Assembly: GCA_036744835.1 (NCBI GenBank)
Contig: DAIOHD010000001.1
Location: forward strand, 547,910 to 611,909
Source of the DNA: Candidatus Magasanikiibacteriota bacterium
GTDB taxonomy: Bacteria; Patescibacteriota; Patescibacteriia; Magasanikbacterales; GWA2-37-8
Length of the DNA: 64,000 nt
Direction: 5' to 3'
Shown here: piece after piece, positions 10,883-49,875 of the stretch
How positions within the stretch are numbered: position 1 is the first letter of the stretch
Layout: each line of letters opens with the position of its first letter
The notes under the pieces: model-generated
Databases searched by the model: none
What the model saw: the letters and a program-made list of their open reading frames with translations, nothing else
Told to the model about the DNA's origin: nothing
Program-made: the position numbers and the translations under genes

Positions 10883-11007
10883 AAATTTGATTAGCTATGA
10901 GAATAATTTTCAATTTTTAATCTTACAATTTTTAATGAATTTTTAATTTATAATTTTCAATTCTATGTCATTTTATGAACTTTATAACTTTATGAACTTT
11001 ATAAACT

Positions 11008-14839: not shown

Positions 14840-15442
14840 ATGATCAAAAATTATTACCCGACGTTTGAAGAAGCGTCAGACGCGTTTGCTAAAATATTGG
14901 AAAAGAAAAAGGTAGATCAATACTCTGGAACAGCTTTTTATGTTTATCTAGGTCATTATGATGAAGATCCCAGACTGCCACCCAGCCCGGAATTCACTTA
15001 CCGGAACGTGTGGAAACAAAATGGGGGCTGGAAAACATTCTTAAAAAGAAAAGATGAAGAGATACTGTTTTATACTTTTGAAGAAGCTCAAGAGGCTATT
15101 CAAAAATTGCGTCCAGTGCCTAAAAATAGCACCGAATACTCAAAGTATCAAAAACAAAATCGACGTCTAACTTCTGTGCCAGCAACCTTTTACCCCGATT
15201 TTGAAGATCGCGGAGGTTGGGACGCCTATCTACTCTTGGCTGAAATTTATATAAACAAAAATCCTCAATATTATGAGGATATATTTGAAGCCAAGAAGGC
15301 TATTATCAAACTCGGAATAAAAAATGAAAATGCATATCGAACTGATTATAAGTTTGATCCAAAACTACCGCCCAATCTACGAGGGTATTATGGAAAATAT
15401 GCTTTACAGAAAGCTTTTGGAAGTTGCTTTAAATTTATTTGA
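14840..15442 (+). CDS. Hypothetical protein built of three tandem ~60-aa repeats (FEEA...A..KL...Y..Y....LPxxP...GW module)
   Basis: Internal repeats YYPTFEEASDAFAKIL.., LFYTFEEAQEAIQKL.. and QYYEDIFEAKKAIIKL... Strong promoter and RBS. One of only three plus-strand genes. Confidence 0.5.
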   Translation: MIKNYYPTFEEASDAFAKILEKKKVDQYSGTAFYVYLGHYDEDPRLPPSPEFTYRNVWKQNGGWKTFLKRKDEEILFYTFEEAQEAIQKLRPVPKNSTEYSKYQKQNRRLTSVPATFYPDFEDRGGWDAYLLLAEIYINKNPQYYEDIFEAKKAIIKLGIKNENAYRTDYKFDPKLPPNLRGYYGKYALQKAFGSCFKFI

Positions 15443-16470: not shown

Positions 16471-16602
16471 TTATTTTCCACAATCACATCCACAACCACA
16501 AGTTTCTTCTTCTTTTTCTTCACACTTGCCGTCTGGACCGCAGTCACAGCCTTCTTTACCACATTCACAAGGTTCTTGTGGGTTTAGTTCATCTAAGTTC
16601 AT
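16471..16602 (-). CDS. Small Cys-rich metallothionein-like peptide (43 aa, 9 Cys), not in the ORF track
   Basis: Reverse-strand ATG at 16602 gives MNLDELNPQEPCECGKEGCDCGPDGKCEEKEEETCGCGCDCGK* (CxC/CGC clusters). A perfect TTGACA-17-TATAAT promoter sits immediately upstream. Confidence 0.45.
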   Translation of the reverse strand: MNLDELNPQEPCECGKEGCDCGPDGKCEEKEEETCGCGCDCGK

Positions 16603-16643
16603 AGTTTTTGTTTACGGCTACTAAAAGTAGCTACTCGGGGTAT

Positions 16644-16672
16644 ATTATAGCACATTTTGGCAGTTTTGTCAA
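16644..16672 (-). promoter_or_regulatory. Consensus sigma70 promoter overlapping a TTGRC-N6-GTCAA palindrome (shared motif, copy a)
   Basis: Minus strand reads cTTGACAaaactgccaaaatgtgcTATAAT. The plus-strand motif is gcacattttggcagttttgtcaag. Confidence 0.6.
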
Positions 16673-16836
16673 GGTCTTAATTTAGCTAGTTATAGCCAAA
16701 TTAAGAATTATAAAAATTACAAAGATTACAAAAATTACAAAGATTATGTTTTTTGGCTAATATTAAATAAAAATAAAAAACCGCTAAAATTAGCGATTTT
16801 TCAATTTATTTTTTATTAATTCATAATCTTACCAGC

Positions 16837-24369: not shown

Positions 24370-24411
24370 AAAAAATTATAGAAATTACAGAGATTACAAA
24401 AATTACAAATA

Positions 24412-26280
24412 TTAATTGGAAATTATTAAATTGAAATTGTTAAATTCATAATTTTGCAAACGGGAATTTTTTGTCCAATCAACCAAATATTTTTCCGCAA
24501 TACTATATTCCATAAGTCCTACGGCGCTGGCTTTTTGTTGAAGCGGAAAAACATGCAAAGATAATGTATTTTCTTTTATCACTAAACCCAGAGAAAGGCC
24601 TTGCTGGGTTGGAACGGAAAAATATTGATCAAATATGAAATTGCCGAGCGAATAAAAAACAGGTTTATTTTGATAAATTTCCATTTCTTGCACCACGTGC
24701 GGGTGATGACCAATAACTGTATCCGCGCCGTTATCTACAAAATAATGTGCCAGTTCGCGTTGGCGAGTATTGGAAATTTCTTTGTATTCATATCCCCAAT
24801 GGATAAAAATAATTACTTTTTCTGCGCCTTTACTTTTTGCTAAATCAATCAATTTTTTTACCGCTGTTTTTTCCACCGGTGAATTGGTATCGTTGAGTCC
24901 AATAAAACCTATTTTGTAATCCCCTACTTGTTTAATAATCAAAGATTCGTTATCTACTCTATATTGCGAACCAAAATATTCAAAACCAAATTTATCTAAA
25001 TTTTTTTTATTTTCTATAAAACCGGCACTGCTCATATCCAAAGTATGGTTATTGGCTAAACTAAATAAACCAAAATTGTATTTTTTCAATTCCGGTAAAA
25101 GAACAGGGTCAAAACGAAAAGCAATTTCTTTGGTGGTGGCGCGTCGTGAATCCGCAAACGGTCCTTCCAGATTAGCAACAATCAAGTCCATTCCAAGAAA
25201 AAATCTATTTTCTTGTCCGGCTAAATTTTTCAATAAATAATCAAAACCGTGTTGATCTATTTTTGTCTTCACACTGCGGTCAAGCATCATATCGCCAAAA
25301 AATAACAAGCTAGCAACTTTTTCTTTTTGTGCATCTCCTCCTATAAAATAAGGAGAATAATAACTAGTGGTTTCTTTGAGAGATGGGGTGTTTAAAATTT
25401 GTGCTGAATTATCAGACAGTTCATAAGCGACTTTACCATAATTTTTTGTAAATAAATATTTGGTCAAAATATATAAACTCCCCGGAGAATCAGTTTCCAA
25501 TTTGAAAGATCGTTCAAAATCCAAATTTTTAATAACTTGTTCACTAAGTTCGTCATGAAAATCAGACACTGGGTTTGTGAGATAGTGAGAAAAATCAACC
25601 GATGCAACAACCACAGAATCATCCGTTACATTTTCCACTAAATATTGATAAACTTTTTCTAAAGTTGTACTCGAAGTATAATAACTAAATATTATCGGCA
25701 CGATTTTTATTTTTGGCAAAGATTTTTTAATAAAAGAAACTAGTGATGAAATGCTTTGTTCTTTAGTAAAAACATTTTCATCAGCCAAACGAGCGATATT
25801 TTTTTCTTGTAAATCAGAAATTATATTAATTTCCGGCGCCAAAATTCCATACGGCGTTTGCCAAGCAAAATCTGTGGTCAGGACTTCACCGTTACCGCTA
25901 TGATAATGATCAGGGCCGAGCAAATAAATAACTTCAGGGTTTTGTTTTTGTAAGTTTTTAAAAAAAGCAGCAGATAAATGACCGGCCAAAAGGTGGTGTG
26001 GTACTATTCCGCCTTTTATATTTCCTAAATTATCCGGAATGAGCGGAGCTCTCTGACAAGCTTCTTCATAAATTTGCAGATCAAAGGGTTCAGCATAAAT
26101 AAAATTGGTAAAAATTTCTTCTTTACTTTGTTTGTTTTCTTTTTGTGTTTTTTGATTAATAGCCAAAATTTCACGACTATCCAAAAAAACCGGTGCTTGA
26201 CGACACAAATTTACAAAAACAACGCCCGATAATAAAATTATCGGGAGAAGAATTAAATTGATAAATATTATTTTCTTCAT
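24412..26280 (-). CDS. Fusion protein: N-terminal TM segment, MEMO1/AmmeMemoRadiSam-B-like domain, C-terminal CapA (PGA_cap) metallophosphoesterase domain
   Basis: GGIVPHHLLAGH (MEMO-like) followed by GDMMLDRSV, ANLEGP, LANNHTLD and IGHHPHVVQ (CapA). Confidence 0.6.
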   Translation of the reverse strand: MKKIIFINLILLPIILLSGVVFVNLCRQAPVFLDSREILAINQKTQKENKQSKEEIFTNFIYAEPFDLQIYEEACQRAPLIPDNLGNIKGGIVPHHLLAGHLSAAFFKNLQKQNPEVIYLLGPDHYHSGNGEVLTTDFAWQTPYGILAPEINIISDLQEKNIARLADENVFTKEQSISSLVSFIKKSLPKIKIVPIIFSYYTSSTTLEKVYQYLVENVTDDSVVVASVDFSHYLTNPVSDFHDELSEQVIKNLDFERSFKLETDSPGSLYILTKYLFTKNYGKVAYELSDNSAQILNTPSLKETTSYYSPYFIGGDAQKEKVASLLFFGDMMLDRSVKTKIDQHGFDYLLKNLAGQENRFFLGMDLIVANLEGPFADSRRATTKEIAFRFDPVLLPELKKYNFGLFSLANNHTLDMSSAGFIENKKNLDKFGFEYFGSQYRVDNESLIIKQVGDYKIGFIGLNDTNSPVEKTAVKKLIDLAKSKGAEKVIIFIHWGYEYKEISNTRQRELAHYFVDNGADTVIGHHPHVVQEMEIYQNKPVFYSLGNFIFDQYFSVPTQQGLSLGLVIKENTLSLHVFPLQQKASAVGLMEYSIAEKYLVDWTKNSRLQNYEFNNFNLIISN

Positions 26281-27072: not shown

Positions 27073-28632
27073 TTACTTCTCCAGCCGCGGAAAAAGTGGT
27101 TGTAATTCTCCTATCTTATTTCCTACTGTCAATTCCACCCAGGTCTGTAAATCTTCCAATTTTTTAGCATTTTCTTTGACAGGATCAAGTCCGAGCTGGA
27201 TAAAAATCTTCTCTGAAGTTTCAGGCATCACCGGATATATCATTATCGCAATATGGCGTAAACTTTCGCATAAGTGGTAAAGCAAATCTTTTACTTCTTC
27301 GGTTTTGCCTTCTTTACTCATTGTCCACGGTTTTTTATCGGAAATCAATTGATCACAATAAGTAATAAACTTCCAAGTACTTTCAAGTGCGCGATCAAAA
27401 CGCCATTTGTCCATATTTTTTTGGTATTCCGGCCAAATCTCGTCGGTTAAATATTTTATCAAATCATTGTTTACATTTTTTACTTTTGGTACTTCACTAT
27501 CGGAATATTTCACCACCATGGATAAAACACGGTTGGTTAAATTTCCCAAACCGTTGGCCAAATCAGCATTAAAACGAACCTCAAATTTACTTTCGGAATA
27601 ATCACCGTCATTATCAAAAGGAATTTCGCGCATCAAGAAATAACGCACTGATTCCAGCGGATATTTTGTTACAATTTCCATTGGATCAATAACATTACCT
27701 ACTGTTTTGCTCATTTTTTGACCATCAACAGTCATCCAGCCGTGTACAGCAATAGTTTTGGGCAATTCCAAACCAGCCGACATCAACATCGCCGGCCAGA
27801 GCAAAGAATGAAAGCGGTTGATTTCTTTGCCAATAACATGTGCATCTGCAGGCCAATATTTTTTCAATAATTTTTCGTCTTCACCATATCCCAATGCGGT
27901 CACATAATTGGTCAAAGCGTCAAACCAAACATACATTACCTGGGTTTTATCTCCCGGCACGGGCACGCCCCAAGATAATTTGTCCGAAGACCTGGAAATG
28001 GAAATATCTTCCAATCCACTTTTTAAAACATTATACATTTCATTGTAGCGGCTTTCCGGATAAACAAAATCCTTGTTTTTTTCAAACAAAAATTCAAGCG
28101 GTTCTTGATATTTGGAAAGTTTGAAAAAATAATTTTCTTCTTCCAATAATTCTGGCTCTTTGTTGTGGTCCGGACACTTACCATCCACTAAATCTTTTTC
28201 GGTTTTATAAGCTTCACACCCTACGCAGTATAAACCACTGTATTTTTTTTTATAAATATCCCCGCTCTTTTCCGCGGCTTTCCAAAATTCTTGTGCGCGG
28301 TCTTCATGGCGCTTCTGCGTAGTACGGATGAAATCGTTGTTAATGATATTCCACTGATCGGCAAGATTCACATATTCCGCGGAAGTTTGCGCGGCGAAAT
28401 CAGCCACATCCATACCTTTTTCCTTGGCGGTTTTCAACATCTTTTGACCGTGTTCATCGGCTCCGGTTAAAAAATATACATCTTTACCGAGCATTCGTTG
28501 ATAGCGGGCCATGACATCGGTATAAAGTAATTCCAAAGCAAAACCGATGTGGGGAGAGGCGTTGGCGTAGGGTATAGCAGTGGTAAGATAAAATTTTTCT
28601 TTTTTGGACATACTTATTTTTTTTAATTTCAA
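27073..28632 (-). CDS. metG: Methionyl-tRNA synthetase
   Basis: PYANASPHIGFA (HIGH) and KMSKT motifs. Confidence 0.9.
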   Translation of the reverse strand: MKLKKISMSKKEKFYLTTAIPYANASPHIGFALELLYTDVMARYQRMLGKDVYFLTGADEHGQKMLKTAKEKGMDVADFAAQTSAEYVNLADQWNIINNDFIRTTQKRHEDRAQEFWKAAEKSGDIYKKKYSGLYCVGCEAYKTEKDLVDGKCPDHNKEPELLEEENYFFKLSKYQEPLEFLFEKNKDFVYPESRYNEMYNVLKSGLEDISISRSSDKLSWGVPVPGDKTQVMYVWFDALTNYVTALGYGEDEKLLKKYWPADAHVIGKEINRFHSLLWPAMLMSAGLELPKTIAVHGWMTVDGQKMSKTVGNVIDPMEIVTKYPLESVRYFLMREIPFDNDGDYSESKFEVRFNADLANGLGNLTNRVLSMVVKYSDSEVPKVKNVNNDLIKYLTDEIWPEYQKNMDKWRFDRALESTWKFITYCDQLISDKKPWTMSKEGKTEEVKDLLYHLCESLRHIAIMIYPVMPETSEKIFIQLGLDPVKENAKKLEDLQTWVELTVGNKIGELQPLFPRLEK

Positions 28633-28716
28633 ATATCAAATTTCCAATTTCCAATCAATTTCAAAATCCAAATTTCAAATTTTGATATTGGATATTGGAT
28701 ATTTGACATTTAGTGA
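28633..28716. repeat. AT-rich palindromic spacer (tttccaatt/atattggat words)
   Basis: tcaaatatcaaatttccaatttccaatca ... tgatattggatattggatatttgacatt forms an imperfect inverted repeat. Confidence 0.5.
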
Positions 28717-29388
28717 TTATTTTCGTGAAATAATCACGACGAATTCCCCTCTTTCATCTTTCATCTTCTCCATAATTTCATAGATTGTTCCGCGGTAAAT
28801 CGTTTCAAACTTTTTGGTCAATTCGCGACACACGACAATTTGTCTTTTCGGATCTAATAACTCTTTTAATTCTTGCAAACATTTCAAAATGCGATGGCCG
28901 GATTCGTAAAAAACAACTGTTTCCTCTGCCTGCACCACTTCCTTGAAATATTTTTGTCTTTTATTTTTGTGCGGAGGAAAACCCATAAATATAAATCTGT
29001 CAGTCGGAAAACCGGAAATGGACAGGGCCATTACTACGGCGGAAACTCCCGGAATCGCCACGATATTTTCCCCTAGCCCTTTTTTAATCAAATATTCAAT
29101 AAGTAAGCCACCTGGGTCAGAAATCCCCGGAGTACCGGCATCAGTAACTAAACCTACATTCTTGCCGGATAAAAGCATGTTTTCAATTTCTTTGAATTTC
29201 GCCATATCACTATGCTGATGAAAATTGACCAACTGTTTATTGATTTCATAATGATCCAACATATTTTTGGTCACCCTGGTATCTTCACACAATATCAAAT
29301 CAACGCTTTTAAAATTTTCCAAAGCGCGCAAAGTAATATCACCCAAATTTCCAATAGGTGTAGCGATAATATAGAGGGTGCCAGGCAT
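28717..29388 (-). CDS. rsmI: 16S rRNA (cytidine1402-2'-O)-methyltransferase
   Basis: Tetrapyrrole-methylase fold with the N-terminal LYIIATPIGNLGDIT motif. Confidence 0.85.
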   Translation of the reverse strand: MPGTLYIIATPIGNLGDITLRALENFKSVDLILCEDTRVTKNMLDHYEINKQLVNFHQHSDMAKFKEIENMLLSGKNVGLVTDAGTPGISDPGGLLIEYLIKKGLGENIVAIPGVSAVVMALSISGFPTDRFIFMGFPPHKNKRQKYFKEVVQAEETVVFYESGHRILKCLQELKELLDPKRQIVVCRELTKKFETIYRGTIYEIMEKMKDERGEFVVIISRK

Positions 29389-44224: not shown

Positions 44225-44257
44225 AAAATATAATTTTTATAAAAATTATTTAAATTC

Positions 44258-44373
44258 AAAACTCAAAAGTCAAAAGTCAAAACTTTGGTGTCCTGAATAA
44301 ATCAGGGCAATTTTATTATATATATCGCGAAGCGATACGATAGTTTTGAGATTTGCGTTTTGAGATTTGAGAT
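44258..44373. repeat. MITE-like element copy 4 (short core; sister of copy 3)
   Basis: caaaactcaaaagtcaaaagtcaaaac | ggtgtcctgaataaatcagggc..atcgcGAAgcgat | ttttgagatttgcgttttgagatttgag. Confidence 0.6.
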
Positions 44374-48059: not shown

Positions 48060-48154
48060 ATATTTATTTTGGCAATAATATCATATTTTAGCAAAAAAAG
48101 CAAGGATTACCGAGATATTGAATATTGGATATTGAATATTGGATATTGAATATT

Positions 48155-48186
48155 AAAAAAATAAAGGAGCCCGGGTTAGGGGCTCC
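48155..48186 (-). terminator. Intrinsic terminator of the small secreted Cys protein gene
   Basis: ggagcccctaacccgggctcc followed by tttatttttttaat on the minus strand. Confidence 0.65.
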
Positions 48187-48204
48187 TATGAAAGCGGTTA
48201 TGAG

Positions 48205-48444
48205 TTACTTCATCAAAGCAAAGATTTTTTCCTCTTCGCCATAATGAAGTACTTCGATGCAAAGCTCTTTTTTTTCAGAATACATTTCGCATTCCTCATA
48301 AAGAGCCCTCTTGCATATTCCGATCTTGACCGGGAGACTTTCATCTCCTTTCATGTGCTTAGCATACACTTCGCACATGTCATTAGCCATAAGACCAGAA
48401 ACAGCCATAAAAACGACCATTGCAAACATAAGTGATTTCTTCAT
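48205..48444 (-). CDS. Small secreted Cys-containing protein (79 aa, signal peptide, 4 Cys)
   Basis: AGGAGA RBS. Signal peptide MKKSLMFAMVVFMAVSGLMA. Carries the shared promoter motif and a ~200-nt structured leader. Confidence 0.5.
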   Translation of the reverse strand: MKKSLMFAMVVFMAVSGLMANDMCEVYAKHMKGDESLPVKIGICKRALYEECEMYSEKKELCIEVLHYGEEEKIFALMK

Positions 48445-48640
48445 GATACTCTCCTTTTAGATAATTTTATGATTCGGACCGCTTTGACTTGTAAAGAACT
48501 TTTTCCTATTTCTAGCTCTCATTCTTTTGAATAAGGGCTTGATAAAAGAAAAACTCTCCTAAATATGGAGAGATATGTCAAAAGATTTGTTTGTATCGCT
48601 TTTATCCTCTCTCCAAGATAAAGTTGATACGATTTGGGTT
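48445..48640 (-). promoter_or_regulatory. Structured 5' leader with alternative antiterminator/terminator hairpins (riboswitch- or attenuator-like)
   Basis: Minus strand reads uuGGAGAGAGgauaaaagcgauacaaacaaaucuuuugacauaUCUCUCCauauuuaGGAGAGuuuuucuuuu. The CUCUCC segment can pair either upstream (GGAGAGAG) or downstream (GGAGAG plus U-run). Confidence 0.4.
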
Positions 48641-48658
48641 TTTATTATTTAACTACAT

Positions 48659-48688
48659 AGTTTAGCACATTTTGACGGTTTTGTCAAG
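48659..48688 (-). promoter_or_regulatory. Promoter with TTGAC-N6-GTCAA palindrome (shared motif, copy b)
   Basis: Minus strand reads cTTGACAaaaccgtcaaaatgtgcTAAACT. The plus-strand motif is gcacattttgacggttttgtcaag. Confidence 0.55.
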
Positions 48689-48867
48689 CCCTAAAAGTGG
48701 CTAATATTAGCGAAATTGAAAATTACAAAAATTTAAAAGATTGCAAAAATTACAAAGATTGCTGTTTTTTGGCTAGGATTAGATAAAATAGTATAAAATA
48801 CTACAAAATTTGGCTTATTGTAAACAAAAAACCCTCGCGTCTGCGAGAGTAAAATATTTGTTTCTTA

Positions 48868-49596
48868 TCATTCCTGTTTTTCTTTTTTCTCTTTTTGAAA
48901 AACAACAATAGAAAAAATATTTTTTTTAAAGGTTGCGGCTTCTTGAAAAAAAGAAGATCCCAAAAAAACAATTGCATCATTTCCTGCTTTTTGAAACAAA
49001 GAAAACCCAATTAAACCAAGTATCACATCATTTCCTGCTTTTTGAAACAAAGAAAATCCGCAACATATTATACTTGCGTCATTTCTTGCTATTTGGAGTA
49101 AAGAAAATCCGAAAAAGCCAATCATCGTATCGTTTCTTGCTATTTGGAGTAAAGAAAATCCGAAAAAAAACATACTCGCATCATTTCCTGCTTTCTGAAA
49201 CAAAGAAAATCCGAAAATAATAGTGCCGTTATGTCCTGCTATTTGGAGTAAAGAAAAGCCTATAGCAACAACTGCATCATTTCCTGCTTTTTGAAACAAA
49301 GAAAATCCGAAAACAATAGTGCCATTAATTCCAGCTTTTTGGAACAGAGAAATGCCAAACCAAGAAAAAGCATTTTTTTCCGCTAACTGAAAAAACATGC
49401 AAATAGAATATACACTCCCTTCGAAATTAATTCCTCCAAAAACAGAATAAACATTCTTTCCTATCCTCCAAGGATATGAAATAAAAAAAATTCCAATAAG
49501 ATGCATGGGATTGTTAGTTATTAACAATCCGGCCAATACGGTAGCTACAACGGCCACTGTTAAATTTACAACGTTAGCGATATTTCTTTTCATCAT
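48868..49596 (-). CDS. Membrane/secreted protein built of ~9 tandem 17-aa repeats (GFSLFQKAGNDAxxxxx)
   Basis: True start is MMKRNIANVV at 49596 with a GGAGG RBS 6 nt upstream. The track ORF, extended to 49803, runs through the gene's own promoter. The DNA contains a 51-bp tandem array. Confidence 0.5.
   Translation of the reverse strand: MMKRNIANVVNLTVAVVATVLAGLLITNNPMHLIGIFFISYPWRIGKNVYSVFGGINFEGSVYSICMFFQLAEKNAFSWFGISLFQKAGINGTIVFGFSLFQKAGNDAVVAIGFSLLQIAGHNGTIIFGFSLFQKAGNDASMFFFGFSLLQIARNDTMIGFFGFSLLQIARNDASIICCGFSLFQKAGNDVILGLIGFSLFQKAGNDAIVFLGSSFFQEAATFKKNIFSIVVFQKEKKEKQE
48953..49390. repeat. 51-bp tandem repeat array (~8-9 units) inside the repeat-protein gene
   Basis: Recurring unit gcatcatttcctgctttttgaaacaaagaaaatccg..., read directly from the sequence. 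Confidence 0.6.
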
Positions 49597-49638
49597 GACA
49601 AACCTCCAAATAAATAAATTGTTAAAGATCAACAAAGT

Positions 49639-49668
49639 ATTGTGATACATTTTAACAATTTTGTCAAC
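49639..49668 (-). promoter_or_regulatory. Promoter with TTRAC-N6-GTCAA palindrome (shared motif, copy c)
   Basis: Minus strand reads gTTGACAaaattgttaaaatgtatCACAAT. The plus-strand motif is atacattttaacaattttgtcaac. Confidence 0.5.
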
Positions 49669-49797
49669 CCTGGCGCTGAGCGCCAGTAAAGCCACTCTTA
49701 GCGTGGCCCGCGAAGATAAGTCGGAGTTATAGTTACGCTTAACATAGACCCGCTCAGCGGGGGCGTGACAATAAATAAAAGTGACTAATATTAACCA

Positions 49798-49826
49798 AAA
49801 CAAAAAACCGCTTTTTCAGCGGTTTT
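49798..49826 (-). terminator. Intrinsic terminator of the acetyl-CoA synthetase gene
   Basis: aaaccgctgaaaaagcggttt followed by ttgtttt on the minus strand. Confidence 0.6.
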
Positions 49827-49875
49827 TGTTTTTAAAATTTACAATCCTATAACTTTTTACTTTTAACTTTCAACT

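Follow-up and report, generated by a model that had tools for sequence, protein, structure and literature searches.

The minus strand of the window analysed here (by window we mean the whole stretch of 64,000 nucleotides from a Candidatus Magasanikiibacteriota contig) carries, in front of a gene for a small secreted protein with four cysteines, a structured leader RNA that is real and under strong constraint and combines a conserved terminator module with a conserved competing pairing. The RNA probably belongs to a familiar type of gene-control element. Judging from its sequence, this 5′ leader of about 210 nt may act in cis as an attenuator RNA for the small gene, a reading that we prefer while giving it somewhat less than an even chance. 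Its anatomy is that of an anti-antiterminator/antiterminator/terminator attenuator, which might be coupled to masking of the Shine–Dalgarno (SD) sequence. No prior description of the element was found in the literature, and it is absent from Rfam.

A first-pass annotation of this DNA had placed a promoter about 200 nt upstream of the small gene and had described, in the intervening RNA, a segment followed after 33 nt by UCUCUCC-AUAUUUA-GGAGAG and a U-run. Its sequence statements on the leader all hold on the minus strand: the motif, the U-run and the 33-nt spacing were recovered at 48614-48544, and the ATG of the gene, at 48444, lies 214 nt 3′ of the -10 hexamer. The promoter matches the consensus at 10 of 12 positions and the TG extension is present (sequence scan). 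On the minus strand of the window GGAGAG occurs eight times, three of them inside the leader (the third copy being the SD of the gene), while TCTCTCC has a single copy, which is also in the leader; the arrangement is therefore more than chance and no artefact of base composition. The transcription unit is monocistronic. The open reading frame (ORF) of 311 amino acids (aa) located upstream has its own terminator (48850-48831), and the small gene is followed by a terminator and then by bipA. Terminators consisting of a hairpin and a U-run are clearly used at gene ends across the genome (sequence scan).

Contigs carrying the element were collected from protein-family matches and from a gapped-motif scan of metagenome contigs at the DNA level, the latter yielding three true orthologues and one unrelated repeat. 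We obtained 12 distinct orthologous leaders (alignment A8), each flanked by this promoter and by an orthologue of the small gene, within the interval between the acetyl-CoA synthetase (ACS) and BipA genes. Lack of conservation upstream of orthologues had been named in the first-pass annotation as one of two findings that would refute a regulatory leader; the leader is conserved upstream of every orthologue found. As a baseline for selective constraint we used bipA, comparing the window with L007, L010, L013 and L098: fourfold-degenerate sites are 48-50% identical and the whole gene shows about 82% nucleotide identity. The small coding sequence is 73-77% identical (window vs L007, L010 and L013). 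As the segments of the leader (Table 1) lie far above the identity of fourfold sites, its first ~150 nt are the most constrained DNA at the locus. The 5′ tail is less constant in L096, L101 and L103, and the linker shows no indels in the 12 sequences. The promoter is kept in all orthologues as TTGACA-17-TATACT, and the centre of its spacer differs among them (CCGTC/GTGTC/GTGCT/GTACT), so that it has no conserved operator.

Constraint on the leader follows an RNA structure. In the 12-sequence alignment 97.6% of the cells assigned to pairs hold standard pairs, vs 40-55% when the partners are slid by 1-3 columns, and all stem substitutions are either wobble or compensatory. Eleven of the 13 pairs in hairpin 1 never vary and two change to G-U alone, and all cells of this hairpin are paired; its apical region GGAGAGAGG (48614-48606; the loop is also written UUGGAGAGAGG) displays GGAGAG, and the 3′ side of its internal loop is variable (AGC/AGA/CGC/UGU). 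The terminator-like hairpin comprises six pairs (four of them GC) and a loop of 7 nt, with an energy of -8.5 kcal/mol. Five of the six pairs are invariant, the remaining one being U-A in two sequences and U-G in ten, and the U-run is invariant in 12/12. It has what is looked for in an intrinsic terminator, that is, a G+C-rich stem of at least 5 bp, a loop of 3-8 nt and an immediate U-run, with pairing kept in the orthologues. Hairpin 3, which in predicted folds extends to a long imperfect helix that includes the U-run, shows three covarying pairs (CG/GU/GC; C.A/UA/CG; AU/GC) in L101, L103 and L105. Real covariation is confined to this hairpin, and hairpin 1 and the terminator are structure-consistent and nearly invariant. 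In the alignment and covariation check suggested in the first-pass annotation, hairpin 3 covaries, the stems keep their pairing and the antiterminator columns are invariant. Neither the covarying hairpin after the U-run nor the complementarity of CUCUCC to the SD and start of the gene had been mentioned there.

Folding of single sequences agrees with this anatomy. The minimum free energy (MFE) structure of the 5′ unit consists of hairpin 1 plus the terminator hairpin (-19.7 kcal/mol), the full leader has a z-score of -3.0 vs shuffles, and RNAalifold, run unguided, recovered hairpins 1 and 3. From its G-U pairs and wobble-only changes, the structure can be assigned to the RNA level and to the strand of the gene, which argues against a DNA palindrome. 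Further pairings were considered and rejected. Between the linker segment UCUUUUGA and either the hairpin 3 loop UCAAAAGA or GUCAAAG no covariation was seen, and a long-range pairing GAUAAAAG/CUUUUAUC is not conserved (L010, L096).

The terminator competes for one of its strands. GGAGAGA (48614-48608; the loop of hairpin 1 plus one stem base) can pair with UCUCUCC (48573-48567) to give a 7-bp antiterminator that excludes the terminator. The mutually exclusive arrangement proposed at the outset is kept in all 12 leaders, at near-equal energies: enforcing the antiterminator fold on the 5′ unit costs 0-7 kcal/mol relative to the terminator fold, the latter being the MFE structure in 11 sequences, with a tie in L002. 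When the nascent chain ends before the 3′ arm of the terminator, the antiterminator is the MFE structure in 7/12. In L105 a 2-nt deletion shortens the loop to GGAGAGG, and both hairpin 1 and the 7-bp antiterminator (with one G-U) are kept. Exposure of the antiterminator strand in an apical loop would offer a natural toehold for strand invasion. A sequence scan for an internal promoter between the terminator and the ATG found none, the TAnAAT-like hexamers before the SD having no conserved -35. Taking into account that a covarying hairpin stands right after the U-run and that no promoter-like site precedes the ATG, the functional RNA must arise by read-through, which favours a conditional or leaky leader terminator over a stand-alone small RNA (sRNA) gene.

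A second alternative partner of the same strand lies at the gene itself. RNAalifold predicts a long-range helix between 48580-48567 and the SD-to-start region at 48454-48445, with 11 bp, 97% of the cells paired and one two-sided change; the energy of the SD duplex ranges from -8 to -16 kcal/mol. CUCUCC may thus also act as an anti-SD for its own gene.

Table 1. Features of the leader, of the transcription unit and of the second promoter-like site, with nucleotide identity among orthologues where compared
Feature	Position	Strand	Identity	Remarks
Promoter	48687..48659	-		TTGACA at 48687-48682, 17-nt spacer, TG-extended -10 TAAACT at 48664-48659; sigma-70-type, strong
A-rich 5′ transcript tail GUAGUUAAAUAAUAAAAACCCAAAUC	48631..48656	-	93-100% (six genomes)	transcription start probably at ~48652-48654
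Hairpin 1	48593..48630	-	95-100%	GUAUC/GAUAC lower stem, 3x3 internal loop, UUUAUCUU/AGGAUAAA upper stem, GGAGAG apical loop
GGAGAGAG	48614-48607	-		exactly 33 nt before UCUCUCC
20-nt linker AAACAAAUCUUUUGACAUAU	48573..48592	-	75% between clades	least conserved part of the 5′ unit; constant length
Shared strand UCUCUCC	48567..48573	-		invariant 12/12; partners: GGAGAGA of hairpin 1, adjacent GGAGAG, or SD of the gene
Terminator-like hairpin CUCUCC-AUAUUUA-GGAGAG and U-run UUUUUCUUUU	48572-48554 + 48553-48544	-	94%; 100% among the other five genomes	sequence scan; directly abutting
Hairpin 3	48499..48553	-	86-96%	core AGCCCUUAUUC-AAAA-GAAUGAGAGCU at 48539-48514, directly after the U-run; in every single-sequence fold
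Hairpin 4 AGGAA-AAAG-UUCUU	48494..48507	-		5 pairs, one A-U/G-U change, 100% of cells paired; weak evidence
Last ~85 nt before ATG			63-73%	
SD GGAGAG and ATG	48454-48449, 48444-48442	-		complementary to linker end and CUCUCC (48580-48567)
Regulated gene	48205..48444	-		ORF; 79 aa, signal peptide, four Cys
Intrinsic terminator of the unit	48165..48187	-		8-bp stem, 6 GC pairs, U-run; strong; before bipA
43-aa ORF with 10 Cys (MNLDELNPQEPCECGKEGCDCGPDGKCEEKEEETCGCGCDCGK)	16471-16602	-		between atpC and lgt, under promoter-like copy (a); metallothionein-like look; no Pfam match

The following sequence of events would account for these features. Transcription would start at the strong promoter and hairpin 1 would form first, with GGAGAG displayed in its apical loop. 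The emerging UCUCUCC could then either invade hairpin 1 from the exposed loop, giving the 7-bp antiterminator, or wait 7 nt for the next GGAGAG, in which case the 6-bp hairpin and the U-run would terminate transcription after about 110 nt. Hairpin 1 would be the anti-antiterminator and the proposed sensor: its stabilisation would lead to termination, and its opening or occupation to read-through. In the read-through RNA, CUCUCC might pair with the SD and start region, so that a single decision would set both transcription and translation. As effector, we consider a trans-acting macromolecule (an RNA-binding protein or the anti-SD of the ribosome) somewhat more likely than a small-molecule ligand, because the stems and loop of hairpin 1 are invariant, its internal loop is variable and no multi-helix aptamer is seen.

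Several points weigh against an attenuator. As the 14 antiterminator columns are invariant except for the deletion in L105, and most terminator columns are invariant too, covariation neither supports nor tests the alternative pairing. Folds of full-length single sequences mostly keep the terminator hairpin, with CUCUCC within it, and the stem of that hairpin is short (6 bp). All aligned leaders come from one narrow clade, and their shared ancestry inflates the apparent support. When cognate and non-cognate SD duplexes were compared, the difference was not significant (p = 0.23). With respect to a sensor, no leader ORF with an SD was seen when the window was read by eye, and the leaders of the window, L101 and L096 gave no T-box, PyrR or ribosomal protein leader match. 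Sequence features, conservation and structure-compatible substitutions are observed, and it is from them that we infer termination, switching and an effector. The element may also be a simple leaky terminator.

These points bear on how the attenuator compares with a structured 5′ untranslated region (5′UTR) that acts on mRNA stability, processing or translation (SD masking, or in a thermometer-like manner) and whose terminator is inefficient. The short terminator stem, the absorption of the U-run into the extended hairpin 3 in full-length folds, the 11-bp complementarity between the CUCUCC segment and the SD/start, and the confinement of real covariation to hairpin 3 would all suit such an RNA. 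SD-sequestering and dual switches, too, have a pyrimidine-rich anti-SD, for which CUCUCC together with the bases before it would qualify here by its complementarity to the SD and start; our leader differs from them in that this pairing lacks significant covariation and CUCUCC is mostly found in the terminator hairpin. However, a U-run and an abutting hairpin that are invariant in 12/12 are the hallmark of a terminator in use, the upstream GGAGAGA copy is both statistically unexpected and invariant, and, by the established mechanism, termination precedes synthesis of the downstream partner of the U-run. We consider a 5′UTR without termination control rather unlikely. An independent or 5′UTR-derived sRNA, corresponding to the ~110 nt from the promoter to the U-run and acting mainly in trans through CUCUCC or the 5′ tail, is improbable. 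A strong promoter followed by ~110 nt and a terminator is indeed how an sRNA gene is built, no other DNA of the locus is as conserved as this unit, and CUCUCC, being anti-SD-like, could target ribosome-binding sites. Against this, the unit is coupled to the same small gene in 12/12 and both are missing together in L015, the covarying hairpin 3 implies a functional read-through RNA, the putative seed CUCUCC lies hidden within the stem of the terminator, and the single-stranded linker is the least conserved part. SreA and SreB of Listeria are riboswitch-derived, prematurely terminated sRNAs. As with other 5′UTR-derived or terminated sRNAs, a promoter-proximal product of ~110 nt would be released whenever the terminator fires; the conserved positions here cluster in the helices instead of forming a single-stranded seed.

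The first-pass annotation had left the choice between a riboswitch and an attenuator. The attenuator anatomy stands, and for a riboswitch no multi-helix aptamer and no Rfam match were found. If the leader were a new riboswitch for a small molecule or an ion, the balance would be tipped by a ligand bound to hairpin 1, which might form an H-type pseudoknot through pairing of its GGAGAG loop with CUCUCC. The architecture resembles the expression platform of many riboswitches, with near-isoenergetic folds; the invariant apical loop and the strong conservation exceed what structure alone would require, and a loop-to-downstream pseudoknot looks geometrically possible, provided that hairpin 1 opened its top two pairs. 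Mutually exclusive, near-equal folds, a long leader on a monocistronic gene and a possible pseudoknot of this kind are shared with riboswitch platforms, preQ1-II and SAM-II included. What sets our leader apart from them is that it shows no recognisable aptamer (a single simple hairpin with a non-conserved internal loop and no conserved junctions), matches none of the Rfam families searched, has a very narrow range and offers no ligand clue in its gene context, the metal hint going back to a shared promoter module. In addition, it is found upstream of one gene in one small clade, and neither the rest of the window nor 79 bipA loci of the candidate phyla radiation (CPR) contain another copy. We therefore regard a ligand-binding riboswitch as unlikely, and the more specific proposal of an undescribed CPR/Patescibacteria riboswitch or ligand-responsive pseudoknot switch, placed on a fast-evolving secreted Cys protein and perhaps reading a host-derived or environmental signal, as quite improbable. 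Conservation for reasons other than RNA is very hard to credit. By our own reading, hairpin 1 is an imperfect palindrome in DNA that could serve as an operator downstream of the promoter, and an 18-codon ORF on the plus strand (48565-48621; MERYVKRFVCIAFILSPR) is open in the window, L007, L010 and L096 (translated by eye). Yet the stem changes are G-U-compatible, which makes them specific to RNA (in DNA they would give mismatches), the covariation of hairpin 3 is likewise of the RNA kind, and in the antisense ORF, which has neither an SD nor a plus-strand promoter, the variable codons differ mostly by amino-acid replacements (Y/S/C, V/I, R/K, F/L, V/L/I, A/T, F/S). Both candidates were rejected.

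Known RNA families were searched with cmscan and 4227 Rfam 15 families; the whole window was scanned at the gathering score, and the leaders of the window, L101 and L096 at E <= 10. At the gathering score no family was found in the window. At E <= 10 the three divergent orthologues gave chance matches alone; yybP-ykoY, NiCo/czcD, fluoride and glycine, the families that had been put forward as candidates, were not among them, and neither were T-box and PyrR. The L10_leader family (RF00557) scored 16.3 bits in L101 and 17.2 bits in L096, vs a gathering threshold of 44 bits; it was not listed for the window and the gene is not rplJ, so this candidate was discarded. No multi-helix aptamer with conserved junctions is visible in the leader. 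Leader-peptide attenuation was also rejected, since no SD-preceded or frame-conserved upstream ORF (uORF) covers hairpin 1 or the terminator. UUG-GAG-AGA-GGA-UAA and a 20-codon UUG ORF lack an SD and their frame is not conserved (read by eye), and an AUG uORF further downstream differs in frame and length between orthologues.

Among the closest known parallels are three-structure transcription attenuators such as the PyrR-controlled pyr leaders of Bacillus (RF00515). There, as here, the loop and 3′ side of a 5′ hairpin overlap the antiterminator, the 3′ strand of the antiterminator is the 5′ arm of the terminator, and the U-run follows directly. The present leader differs in that RF00515 did not match at E <= 10, that its gene (a 4-Cys secreted protein) is not a pyr gene, that no PyrR gene was identified and that it exists as a single copy in one clade; membership of the RF00515 family was discarded. 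The apical part of hairpin 1, UUGGAGAGAGGAU, resembles ARUCCAGAGAGGYU, which we take to be the PyrR-binding consensus; with the RF00515 model unmatched, this is a lead and nothing further.

How Patescibacteria (CPR) regulate their genes is almost unexplored; the leader represents a compact, strongly constrained candidate for a native conditional terminator. The secreted 4-Cys protein diverges much faster than its surroundings and might, speculatively, act in cell–cell interactions. If the switch and its trigger were established, the element would be a new cis-regulatory RNA motif for databases and a handle on when these episymbionts express a variable surface or secreted factor. If a riboswitch proved true, it would be among the first native small-molecule-responsive switches of the largely uncultivated and genetically intractable CPR and a ready inducible element for them; a review lists riboswitch-type elements among the tools wanted for inducible expression in Patescibacteria (PMC11665869). 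If it were only a leaky terminator or a stabilising 5′UTR, it would be an ordinary feature of local interest.

The carriers of the leader form one narrow clade of Magasanikbacteria. Among 80 bipA loci of species-representative genomes, the element occurs only in the nearest relatives, L014 (98% BipA identity) and L017 (88%). In L015 (92% BipA identity) the same promoter module occupies the same slot in front of an unrelated 75-aa membrane protein, with a leader of ~45 nt, and both the RNA element and the small gene are absent. In L016 (89% BipA identity) the ACS-bipA slot consists of 110 N at 2357-2466, which would mask any copy of the element. A covariance model (R1) trained on the first 150 nt of nine leaders detected no further copy in the 64-kb window (next best score, 24.8 bits) and none in the 79 CPR bipA loci; the exact 21-mer of hairpin 1 had no match in viral contigs. 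The small protein has its most distant homologue in L107 (P0013, 34% identity); upstream of it, at 1-74, AGTTCAAGCGGGTGC resembles the 3′ part of the leader (GTTCTTTA..AAGCGGTCC), a hint that the long leader reaches this homologue as well. The contig stops 74 nt before P0013, short of the 5′ unit.

The four cysteines of the 79-aa protein are invariant. Word-indexed searches for its family gave 7 and then 12 clusters, and an exhaustive hidden Markov model search of 1.84 billion representatives gave 7 matches; one member is annotated as Candidatus Magasanikbacteria. No Pfam family was matched at the curated cut-off, the best hit having an E value of about 0.2 and 12 bits. An AlphaFold2 model of the protein is helical and of modest confidence (predicted local distance difference test score, pLDDT, 65), and no fold match to it was found in the PDB. 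Gene callers over-extend the small ORF into the leader in L013 (P0004, 124 aa), L106 (P0016, 124 aa) and L103 (P0012, 165 aa) because one frame of the leader lacks stop codons; part of the database 'protein', e.g. ..VSTLSWREDKSD..SLHILGSFSFIK.., is translated hairpin 1 and terminator.

The promoter of the leader belongs to a module of ~150 nt that is repeated in the window, at 16642-16791 (-) and 48657-48830 (-), with 79% identity. It is composed of TTAGCCA boxes and TTGTAATNT 9-mer repeats, followed by CTTGACAAAA-N-AAAATGTGCTATAMT. The module is also found in L002 (401-523) and L015 (1921-2056), and in related genomes it stands before unrelated small genes, like a portable promoter cassette. 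The L002 copy of 123 nt lies just before a 152-aa ORF. Three promoter copies had been listed in the window by the first-pass annotation, (a) and (c) at ~35 nt from their start codons and (b), the one described here, at ~200 nt. Copy (b) was borne out; copy (a), at 16672..16644, holds as a promoter-like sequence 42 nt before the Cys-rich 43-aa ORF; copy (c), at ~24372-24413 and preceding TatD, shares only the TTGTAATNT repeats on the upstream side and lacks the core promoter. The TTGAC..GTCAA 'palindrome' of the spacer is not conserved in orthologues. The regulon context had also been read as hinting at a metal or ion. This hint rests only on the shared module, which drives unrelated genes, among them that for the L015 membrane protein, and whose copy (a) lies between atpC and lgt; no shared operator or metal-handling genes were found, and a metal regulon was rejected as unsupported. 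Nothing points to a metal or any other ligand.

The genes neighbouring the element encode an ADP-forming acetyl-CoA synthetase, pyruvate:ferredoxin oxidoreductase, BipA and PBP2. When the window (48060-49875) was compared with L002, L007, L013 and L015, the ACS-bipA interval appeared as a variable island. It holds the 311-aa repeat protein and the small gene in the window, three other ORFs and the small gene in L002, the small gene alone in L007 and L013, and the 75-aa membrane protein instead in L015. In the L002 island a long copy of the module precedes the first ORF and short promoter-like matches precede the other two. L014 and the window are 95.6% identical in bipA DNA and 67.5% in the small coding sequence, and the leader linker of L014 is of the L007 type; from these sequences, the contrast suggests either that the allele was replaced by recombination or that the secreted protein is under diversifying selection. 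The 311-aa ORF (48868-49803, minus strand) consists of 51-nt/17-aa tandem repeats (GFSLFQKAGNDA...), its true start being probably internal; it has no Pfam match and is absent from most orthologous loci.

An insertion of ~100 nt with two GC-rich hairpins (GCCACGCTAAGCGTGGC and GCCCGCTCAGCGGGC) is present in L007 (about 2650-2755) as well as in L003, L005, L010, L098 and L103. It lies inside the promoter module just before the -35, which it rebuilds (GGGCTTGACA), and with CTTG at both flanks it looks like a miniature inverted-repeat transposable element. A 200-aa ORF (14840-15442) that adjoins lgt is encoded on the plus strand, opposite to almost all other genes, and matches the Pfam 'Integrase repeat unit' (INT_rpt). 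AT-rich short tandem or dispersed repeats (AATATTCAATATCC, AATTTTTAATKAATTTT, TCAAAAGTCAAAAG and TTTTGAGATTTG) are present in nearly every intergenic region and are common to distant loci of the window, examples being 48118-48160, 10905-10962, 28622-28735 and 44250-44371.

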